Assembly: GCF_036507355.1 (NCBI RefSeq)
Contig: NZ_AP027877.1
Source: Escherichia coli
GTDB taxonomy: Bacteria; Pseudomonadota; Gammaproteobacteria; Enterobacterales; Enterobacteriaceae
DNA: 64,000 nucleotides
Direction: 5' to 3' (one strand)
In this document: one piece after another, positions 52,401-55,400 of the stretch
Layout of the letters: each line of letters starts with the position of its first letter
How positions within the stretch are numbered: the first letter of the stretch is position 1
Made by a program: the position numbers

Positions 52401-55400
52401 GGCTCCGGCGGCGGGGGTGCATACGATAATAGCTATTCACACACGTCAGGACGTGGCGGGCACGGAGCTAATGGCGTGCTGGTAATTCGGGAGTTCATGT
52501 AAATGAATGATATCTATGCAGTTGTTGATAATAACGTTGTTATTAATGTCATTATCTGGGACGGAATTTCTGAATGGAAACCAGAGGCTGGTAATTTAGT
52601 TCCGTTAAACGGCGATGCTGGCATCGGTTGGTCATATTCAGACGGAGTATTTACCGCGCCACCTCCCCCAGAACGCTCTCACAACGCGTTAGTTGCGGAG
52701 GCTGAGCTGCAGAAATCAGCACTACTGACCGTAGCAAATAACACAATAGCACCGCTGCAGGATGCCGTTGATTTGGAAATGGCGACAGACGATGAACAGG
52801 CGTTAATGCTGGCGTGGAAAAAATACAGGGTACTGCTGAACCGTGTTGATACCTCAGCGGCACCCGAAATAGAGTGGCCTACGCAACCGGGGGAGCGGGC
52901 CAGTTGATATCAGGCGCAGCGTCAGCATCAACTGCTGTCACTGCGTCGATGTAGTCGAGTACCGCATTCAGCCGCGTTTTTTCATCATCAGTCAGTTTGC
53001 GGCCTGCACTTCTCCGTTGACATCTTTGTTATATGGTACAACTGCGCAGAGGCCTGTCTCTTCAATTGTGCCAGTTGAATACTACGATACAACGCTCGGC
53101 CTTCCTGTTTGGTGGAACATAACCACATCCACATGGAAAAGAGCTGATGGTGTAGATGTATAAACTTAAAAAAGGCGCTTTTTAGCGCCTTTAAATTAAG
53201 ATATTCTTTTAGCTATAGAATGACCTATATTTATAAACGGTTTTTCTATTACGTTATATATCAAGTAAGATAGGCTTATAGAAATTATGAGCGATGATAT
53301 ATAAATGGCAAACGATCTATGTTCAGTGCTAATACCAATACTGGAACCGTAAAACTCAATAAACTGTATAACAGGAACATGAATCAGATAAAGTGAATAT
53401 GATATTCCACCAAGAGCAACAAGTGATTTATTGAATGAAATAACTTTATTATTTTCTAGAATAATAACACACAAAACAATCAGAAATGCAATATATGCAG
53501 ATCGCGTCAAACCATGTCCTTCAGACACCCCATTAAGCCAAAAAACAAACATCATTCCTAGAATGAAAACGCATAAACTATTTATAATAGAATTATTCAT
53601 TCTTTTATGCCTAAGTAAAGGCATTGTCTCTGATATAATCATCCCTAAAATGAAATCATATACTATAGGATTGCCTATGAATCCTATATGAGAAAACACC
53701 CCTGTTTTTGCAATATTGAATGATTGGGCGTCAATTACTACCGAGTGGTTAAAGTAAAGAGAAATAATTGTACTTACAGCAACTAGAAAACATGATGTGA
53801 TTAATACCCTGTATTTTATGCTTAATGACATGGATATTGCGAAAATAAAATAAAAATATATCTCGTACCCAAGTGACCATGAAACAATTAGCGTTCCCCA
53901 CCCATAATATGGCGGTAGAGTTGAGACATCTAAAGGGATGAGAAGAAATGATTTTATAATATTATTTATAGAAAAAACACCACCCCATGATACGCCTGTG
54001 TAAATATTGTGGTAAAAAAGAAAAACATAAACGCTTAATACTATTGCGTAAACAGGATAAATTCTAAAAAATCTCTTTACAAGAAATGAGGCGGTATTTC
54101 TTAAAGATGTTTTTGTAAAGTTTTTAGTTGAGTATGATATTATAAATCCGCTTATTATAAAAAACAATTCAACTCCAAATATAGCATTCGCGGTTATCCT
54201 GTCCATGAAAGAACCAGGATCTACTTGCCCGAAAAGACCTCTATTATGACCAATAGCTACAGCAAGAGCTGCAATTCCACGAAGCGCTTCTATTCCGTAT
54301 AATTTATCTGTTTTCATCAAGTAATATAGTTAGTAGTTGATAAAATTGTTGCTGGAGTCTACCACCAAGAGCTTGGATGATCGACCAGTTAGCATCTCAA
54401 GCTGTATGCGTGAGACAAAAACGAGACACACAAAGCTTTGCAAGTCTTTGCGCTGTTTACCTATGATACCTTCTCCTCAATCCAATCCGCCCACCACTGC
54501 ATCATTTCTCTGCGCTTATCGAGATACTGAGCATGGTTGTAAATCCCGCGCACAGATCCGCCGTTGGCATGTGCCAGTTGCACTTCAATAGCATCAGCAG
54601 GCCATTCGTGCTCGTTCATAATCGTGCTGAATTCATGCCTGAATCCGTGACCGCTTTCCAGACCTTCATAGCCGATTTGTTTGATCACAAGCAGTACAGC
54701 GTTCTCGCAAATTGGCTTCTTCTTATCGTTGCGCCCGGCAAAAACAAACTCTGATACTGGTTTGGTGATTGAACTTAGCGTAGTGAGAAGTTCAACTACC
54801 TGGTCTGACATAGGAACCACATGAATCTTGCGTCCCTTCATCACACTGGCCTCGATGGTGATAATCCTGTTTTCAAAATCGACGTTCTTCCATTGCATGG
54901 AACGAAGCTCTTTTGTTCTTAGTGCTGTGTAGCGTAAAACTTTGGTCGCAATGAGAGATACGATACTTCCTGAAAATGTTGCAAGTGCTTTGTTGAATGC
55001 CGGGATCTGGTCGGCAGGTAAAAACGGGAAGTTCTTCTTGCGGTATCCTTTCATGGCGTCTGCAAGGTCAGGTGCCGGGTTATATTTAGCCCTTCCGGTG
55101 ACAATAGCGTAACGAAAAACCTCGCCGCATCTTCTGCGGGCTTTGTTGGCTCGCTCCATTGCACCGCGATCTTCAAATCTTCGGATTACTTCCAGCAGTT
55201 GCATCGGCTCAATATCCTGAATTTCAAGACCGCCGATGATGGGTAAAATGTCGTCATCAAACATTTTGGCAAGTTCAGTTGCATAGCCTACTGACCAGAC
55301 TTGCTTCTTGTGCTCGTACCATTCCTTGTAAATCGCACTAAATGAATTGTTGTTAGACGAAGCCTTTTTCGCCTTTACCGGATCGATGCCAACCGAGATG

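Follow-up and report, generated by a model that had tools for sequence, protein, structure and literature searches.

A fragment of an inverted tail-fibre assembly gene in a defective argW prophage of Escherichia coli, probably the leftover of a Pin-type invertible segment

In the 64-kb stretch of DNA analysed here (the window), a complete tail-fibre assembly gene (tfa) runs towards a short minus-strand frame that resembles the end of a second tfa, and the two 3' ends overlap. This arrangement raises the question of whether the short frame is a remnant of a host-range switch, and whether such a switch could still operate. A preliminary description had placed the feature at 52860-53020, coordinates which bracket it correctly, and had considered it as the vestige of an invertible tail-fibre segment that is frozen and partly deleted.

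The window is a part of the E. coli chromosome that carries a defective prophage adjoining the tRNA gene argW, with yfdC on one side of argW and an IntS-type integrase gene on the other (Table 1). Both intS and yfdC are annotated in the matching genome, and integration at argW beside yfdC with IntS was thus established. The prophage, of the CPS-53/SfV/e14 kind and with a Mu-like tail, is located left of the integrase. From about 48 kb, its genes follow in the order portal, prohead protease, an ORF in which a head protein and the tail sheath are fused, tail tube, truncated tail protein, truncated YmfQ-like baseplate protein, fibre gene, tfa, inverted tfa relic, acyltransferase gene and integrase. 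At least two internal deletions have affected it: the first fused the N-terminus of the head protein to the C-terminus of the tail sheath (49923-50582), and the second joined the truncated tail protein to the truncated YmfQ around 51120. The acyltransferase gene is a cargo gene of the lysogenic-conversion type, found in place of the gtrABC genes of K-12 CPS-53 and of E. coli 042. For the stretch from fibre to acyltransferase, the closest complete genome was 99.9% identical over 51500-54400, with an identical layout annotated. The exact combination was absent from the complete E. coli genomes in the collection, none of which covered at least 80% of window 44000-56000.

Table 1. Position, strand and basis of assignment of the features around the convergent tfa genes
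Feature	Coordinates	Strand	Basis or remark
Tail-fibre gene	51570-52502	+	constant N-terminal part e14 StfP-like; variable part glycine-rich
pix-like 26-bp crossover site, orphan	51847-51872	+	fibre constant/variable junction
tfa, tail-fibre assembly (chaperone) gene, complete, 134 aa	52503-52907	+	ORF; PF02413; phrog_188; PGAP
29-nt overlap of the 3' ends of tfa and inverted relic	52879-52907	both	
Relic of a second, inverted TfaE-type tfa: last ~45 codons and stop, no start codon	52879 to ~53016	-	
Breakpoint interval: inverted tfa homology ends, receptor-binding-protein 3' homology begins	53008-53022		
3' fragment (48 codons) of another tailspike/tail-fibre gene, natural stop	53017-53163	+	tblastn; phrog_20787
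Hairpin terminator, G+C-rich, between convergent late operon and acyltransferase gene	53171-53192	-	
Acyltransferase-3 family membrane protein	53196-54320	-	PF01757, E 9e-29
Integrase IntS of prophage	54461-55654	-	ORF and annotation of matching genome
tRNA-Arg(CCU), argW, prophage attachment site	55780-55854	-	

On the minus strand of 52870-53040, the frame ends at a TAG stop (52881-52879) and opens after the stop at 53031-53029. No ATG, GTG or TTG within it gives 30 codons or more, and likewise none gives more than about 20. When compared with Pfam, this 49-aa frame matched PF02413 (Caudo_TAP) with an E value of 6.1e-11 and 43 bits, for a cut-off of 22.1 bits, at profile positions 94-130/131; as judged from this alignment, the match covers a fragment of the domain. 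Families of tail-fibre assembly proteins in PHROG were matched with E values from 1e-14 to 7e-07. Furthermore, residues 156-200 of e14 TfaE aligned to 53016-52882 with 66.7% identity (tblastn, E 1.5e-8), and the full-length inverted Tfa of a P1-like plasmid was 77.8% identical over 45 aa (E 1e-20), whereas the C-terminus of the plus-strand Tfa was only 42.9% identical over 35 aa (E 1.4e-4). The DNA homology to full-length inverted tfa genes stops at 53007 for the P1-like plasmid and for strain MLI107 (L006), and at 53020 for e14. On the evidence of these comparisons, the relic is a Tfa C-terminus of the TfaE type that does not derive from the neighbouring tfa, and the similarity to Tfa proteins assumed in the preliminary description holds in a proper alignment.

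The same frame already carries a label in databases. PGAP annotates 52879-53007 as "tail fiber assembly protein, incomplete, missing N-terminus", and the relic peptide itself has been deposited as "tail fiber assembly protein, partial". In a search of 5.8 billion proteins, no full-length gene with a near-identical C-terminus, and thus no parent of the relic, was found; fragments of at most 81 aa were recovered, and the nearest full-length relative is the plasmid protein mentioned above. When the relic peptide was compared with the phage collection by tblastn, there was no match at E 1e-3, probably due to low-complexity filtering and to the short query.

The product of the complete gene on the plus strand matched PF02413 with an E value of 3.3e-32 (111.8 bits, profile positions 41-130) and phrog_188 with an E value of 8e-35, and PGAP labels it "tail fiber assembly protein". 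In the overlap with the relic, the stop codon of each gene sits just past the Trp-Pro codons of the opposite gene. An identical convergent overlap of 29 nt was observed between tfaP and tfaE of e14 (L003, 5518-5546), where the invertase gene is adjacent, and in the P1-like plasmid (L005, 4005-4033), where a recombinase gene is adjacent. It was also found between yfdK and tfaS in K-12 CPS-53, as well as in the partly decayed segment of strain MLI107. The overlapping 3' ends are therefore the native design of Pin-type segments and no deletion artefact; convergent tfa genes do form the centre of invertible segments, as had been proposed.

The likeness extends to the fibre gene upstream of tfa. 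Its product is 80% identical to residues 1-128 of e14 StfP, and the variable part belongs to PF21722 (Gly_rich_2; E 8.5e-19, scored on the intact copy of L001). In the window, a nonsense codon at 52278-52280 (CAA to TAA) stops the fibre ORF at 52280 and makes it a pseudogene. The C to T change at 52278 is specific to the window, and the frame of 310 aa is open in the two nearest genomes, L001 and L002.

The search for crossover sites that the preliminary description had recommended revealed one site, through its palindromic core AAACCNNGGTTT and comparison with e14. Its sequence, CTCTCGAAAACC-TT-GGTTTGGGAGAT, consists of two imperfectly symmetric half-sites around a central dinucleotide and is identical in 25 of 26 positions to pixL, the left site of the e14 P segment. 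A search with the Mu gix site, allowing up to 3 mismatches, gave no match in the window. As in a functional switch, the constant part of the fibre gene ends at the crossover site. Indeed, the DNA homology to e14 (96.4%), which spans ymfQ and the first ~100 fibre codons, and with it the stfP homology, stops at 51874, that to K-12 yfdL (96.3%) at 51871, and that to phages SfV, SfI, SfII and SfIV near the same point. In a table published for SfI, the e14 homology ends at SfI position 17,234, which is the same point (PMC3636060). In addition, an inverted match of 24 nt fell on the second e14 site, beside pinE.

The other elements of a functional switch were then lacking from the window. While e14, the P1-like plasmid, strain MLI107 and the viral contig L039 each contain a + and a - site (26-bp site scan), no second site was found in the 64 kb even with 7 substitutions in 26. 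No homologue of the serine invertase PinE of e14 was detected in the window (tblastn, best E 0.43), in agreement with the preliminary description; an invertase is present in the intact comparators e14, L005 and L039. Instead of two cassettes, one complete cassette (51873-52907) was observed, the partner being reduced to 45 tfa codons. A segment with a single site and without an invertase is unable to invert. It had also been stated that no second fibre gene remains. This is correct as far as an inverted variable fibre part is concerned, none being present in the window, but it overlooks the 3' stub of a receptor-binding-protein gene that abuts the relic.

The 48-codon frame of this stub matched the tailspikes of CBA120 (orf212) and Henuyfy11N (tblastn, E 1e-9 to 3e-10), these matches beginning at residues 2-7 of the frame, and it also matched fibres of Erwinia phages; in all these proteins the homology is at the extreme C-terminus. 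The comparison with phrog_20787 gave an E value of 8e-9. The stub is thus part of a different receptor-binding-protein gene, and not of the inverted variable fibre part that a switch would have there. In K-12, the corresponding place is taken by the ORF yodE, which was considered as a homologue of the fragment and rejected, its sequence being unrelated and without PHROG match. From about 53095, the 3' third of the stub is mosaic between strains and varies with the downstream cargo gene, and the stub is frameshifted in one strain by a deletion of 4 nt (L011). In E. coli 042, which has gtrABC instead of the acyltransferase gene, the shared sequence ends exactly at 53163. The stub belongs to the left flank of the module formed by O-antigen-modification cargo and integrase.

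Of 5426 complete E. coli genomes, 68 were found to contain the cassette together with the relic. The match spans the truncation point and at least 80% of the query in 66 of them, and a full-length inverted tfa was seen in none. In strain 300081, a lambdoid stf gene is joined to a block made up of the final ~90 nt of tfa, the relic, the stub and gtr, which indicates that the scar also travels with the cargo module. From this joint, the relic may have arrived in the prophage at the edge of an imported block, instead of arising there by a deletion.

Taken together, we consider it very probable that the relic is an inert leftover from the partner half of a Pin-type switch, which was cut short where an illegitimate joint connected it to the flank of the cargo module, and that the locus is locked in the configuration expressing the glycine-rich fibre. 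In an intact switch, a serine invertase recombines two inverted 26-bp sites, one located in the fibre gene at the end of the constant part and the other beside the invertase gene. Inversion then swaps which of two convergent cassettes, each made of a variable fibre part and a tfa, is joined to the constant part. The half that survives in the window would be the left one, which runs from the constant part through the crossover site and the glycine-rich variable part to tfa. The remainder of the partner tfa, the variable fibre part that went with it, the second site and the invertase gene would have been lost through an illegitimate joint formed at about 53008-53022. The place of the lost half would have been taken by the unrelated receptor-binding-protein 3' end that flanks the module of O-antigen-modification cargo and integrase. 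We infer this order of events, and the truncation may have occurred either in the prophage's own lineage or in a donor before import of the block. The relic would persist because its first 29 nt double as the 3' end of the complete tfa, and because the event took place recently, the copies in other strains being 96-100% identical. The proposal that the switch is frozen and partly deleted is hence upheld. Moreover, due to the nonsense mutation in the fibre gene and to the large internal deletions of the prophage, the prophage has no host range left that could be switched.

The closest parallel is the tfaS pseudogene (b2353) of K-12 CPS-53/KpLE1, which lies at the same site (yfdC, argW, intS). 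As in the window, a truncated TfaE-type gene, tfaS, converges on a complete one, yfdK, with the 29-nt overlap; an orphan crossover site is found in the truncated fibre gene yfdL, there is no invertase, and O-antigen-modification cargo lies between relic and integrase. However, K-12 tfaS keeps 100 codons (93.7% identical to e14 TfaE) against 45 in the window, and the allele in the window has diverged further, with 60% identity to TfaS. The alleles of the complete tfa (39% identity for Tfa) and of the variable fibre part are unrelated to those of K-12; K-12 has gtrABS as cargo where the window has an acyltransferase gene, and its relic is abutted by yodE, which differs from the 48-codon fragment. 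These differences in relic length, sequence and adjoining DNA show that the two truncations are independent and concern different alleles. In the literature, tfaS serves as a neutral marker position (PMC2951348).

The intact counterpart is the P segment of e14 (stfP-tfaP / tfaE-stfE, pinE), the G segment of Mu and the C segment of P1 being of the same kind. That Pin inverts the e14 segment is well established (PMC4272514). The window shares with it constant fibre DNA that is 96% identical up to the crossover site, the site itself and the convergent tfa genes with their overlap. In contrast to e14, it has no invertase, no second site and no second variable fibre part, and cannot invert; the alleles of the variable part and of tfa also differ. 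In phages SfV, SfI, SfII and SfIV, the tail and baseplate module and the constant fibre part are common with the window (~96.5% up to the crossover site), the site is likewise an orphan without invertase, and O-antigen cargo and integrase follow downstream of tfa. Unlike the window, SfV lacks an inverted tfa relic in the interval from tfa to gtrV, and P2 has none either.

The cassette of the window was found inside an intact invertible segment in the viral contig IMGVR_UViG_2571042420_000006 (L039). Window 51850-52895 is 96.75% identical to L039 5348-6393 over 1046 bp, a homology that sets in within the crossover site and runs into the 3' end of tfa. This segment has a Pin homologue, 84% identical to e14 PinE, and both a + and a - site; the cassette lies between the Pin homologue and the host fibre gene, in the orientation that leaves it unfused to that gene. 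The window has other fibre and baseplate genes than this phage, and in L039 the convergent partner is a short tfa of 60 aa, not of the TfaE type. This last observation speaks against the origin proposed above for the relic, as does the identity of only 77.8% with its closest full-length relative.

Mosaic boundaries located exactly at the crossover site, as seen in e14, CPS-53, the SfV-type phages and L039, invite another reading, with which they are compatible without demonstrating site-specific exchange. The orphan site and the conserved tfa 3' end with the relic could act as "landing pads", at which fibre cassettes and O-antigen-modification cargo are exchanged between unrelated prophages, either by invertases that resident prophages or plasmids of the same cell supply in trans (e14 Pin, P1 Cin, Mu Gin) or through homologous recombination. 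The movement of the relic with gtr cargo into a lambdoid prophage and the mosaic alleles of the stub are likewise compatible with this proposal, and likewise do not demonstrate exchange. If it were true, the relic would be a working recombination joint and not inert debris, but we regard it as improbable.

It appears very unlikely that the relic is kept for a function, be it that of a small protein, of an antisense RNA directed at the 3' end of tfa or of a late-operon terminator. The relic is nearly invariant among the 68 carrier genomes, and a translated small ORF, yodE, occupies the analogous position next to tfaS in K-12. However, the whole block has spread recently, which accounts for the high identity among genomes. 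Besides the missing start codon, no promoter-like site was found on the minus strand of 52880-53100, the predicted fold was no better than that of shuffled sequence (z -1.04), and no Rfam family was matched. Furthermore, all five substitutions that distinguish the relic in strains 042 and EC31 change the encoded residue, which is consistent with no selection on the relic frame, five being too small a number for a formal test.

It is also highly unlikely that the switch is still active by means of an invertase encoded elsewhere in the genome, for instance the Pin of an e14-type prophage, acting on the orphan site (51847-51872) together with a partner located beyond the window. Hin/Gin-family invertases require two sites and a Fis-bound enhancer in one supercoiled domain, so that action over a long distance is very inefficient. 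The orphan site is nearly identical to the functional e14 site, and e14-like elements are present in many E. coli strains, but neither a partner site nor an invertase was found in the 64 kb, as described above. Although Pin of e14 is active in K-12 populations, a whole-genome inversion scan of K-12, which also has the orphan yfdL site, reported the e14 locus alone (PMC4272514). Finally, a local inverted duplication, by which the relic would have been copied from the 3' end of the adjacent tfa through a replication or repair error with no switch involved, is extremely unlikely: the two C-termini are alike and stand tail to tail, but the relic is much closer to TfaE-type proteins (66.7-77.8%), its DNA aligns with the full-length inverted tfa genes of e14, L005 and L006, no inverted DNA repeat with the plus-strand tfa exceeds chance pairs of 13-15 nt, and the same overlap exists in intact switches.

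A feature of this kind is already known, this copy is already annotated by PGAP, and the significance of the present analysis lies mainly in correct annotation: the minus-strand tfa-like frame is to be called a pseudogene fragment. The region shows the decay of a phage host-range switch, from which the invertase has disappeared while a single crossover site and 45 codons of the second chaperone gene are still there, and in which the crossover site marks a sharp boundary between interchangeable fibre modules.

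The defective prophage carries at least two internal deletions (see the table). One fusion open reading frame joins the N-terminus of the major head protein (aa 3-63) to the C-terminus of the tail sheath, and across this first joint related intact prophages are about 4.2 kb longer. A tail protein is truncated to 60 aa and directly followed by a YmfQ-like baseplate protein that has lost about 55 residues from its N-terminus.

A C-to-T change at 52278 turns CAA into TAA, a nonsense mutation that cuts the tail-fibre gene at codon 237. This change is specific to the window, the 310-codon frame being open in the nearest genomes, L001 and L002. 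In L001, and at the equivalent positions in other RefSeq genomes, the NCBI automatic pipeline (PGAP) gives this single continuous frame two entries, a pseudogene named 'StfP, incomplete' and a 'glycine-rich domain-containing protein' that overlaps it in the same frame. The two entries part at the pix-like crossover site, and the division is apparently an artefact of annotating a mosaic gene. Orphan crossover sites identical to pixL, the left site of the e14 P segment, are kept in the fibre genes of invertase-less phages and prophages, namely phage SfV and K-12 (yfdL, a truncated fibre gene); all the mosaic boundaries among these fibre genes lie at the crossover site.

Within the complete tfa gene, Rfam IS009 (RF02111) gave a sub-threshold match, scoring 45 bits where the gathering score is 117 (E 3e-8). 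The match lies wholly inside the coding region. It may reflect no more than conserved tfa coding sequence captured by the family model.

The stub abutting the inverted tfa relic shows homology to tailspike and tail-fibre proteins at their extreme C-terminus, with a YYDTTLGLPVWWN motif. Its final third is mosaic among strains and co-varies with the gene downstream, either gtrC or an acyltransferase gene; in another strain (L011) its counterpart is frameshifted. The stub looks like a recombination joint flanking the O-antigen-modification cargo. In the K-12 prophage CPS-53, a small gene annotated 'toxic protein YodE' occupies the analogous position, between tfaS, the counterpart of the relic, and the gtr cargo. 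Like the stub, yodE lies in the late-gene orientation, but the two are unrelated in sequence, and no PHROG match was found for yodE.

The acyltransferase-3 family gene of the window stands where gtrABC would, between the fibre module and intS; among 5426 complete E. coli genomes, only 4 have this arrangement. The gene probably serves lysogenic conversion, as one of the O-antigen acetylase type.

Coordinates of the features described
Feature	Sequence	Position	Strand	Size
Fusion frame at the first internal deletion	window	49923-50582
Truncated genes at the second internal deletion	window	50938-51566
Fibre frame	window	51570-52502		310 codons
Fibre frame	L001	6071-7003		310 codons
Nonsense codon	window	52278-52280
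IS009 match	window	52670-52858	+
Stub	window	53017-53163	+	48 codons
Acyltransferase gene	window	53196-54320		374 aa
Orphan site, SfV	L009	5848-5873
Orphan site, yfdL	L004	6909-6884
yodE	L004	5498-5644
Scar, strain 300081	L010	4360-4850

In E. coli strain 300081, a lambdoid side-tail-fibre gene (1259 aa) is joined directly to a block that consists of the final ~90 nt of tfa, the inverted relic, the stub and gtrABC. Since the scar is joined there to a lambdoid gene, it was concluded that the scar travels with the cargo module across unrelated prophage types.
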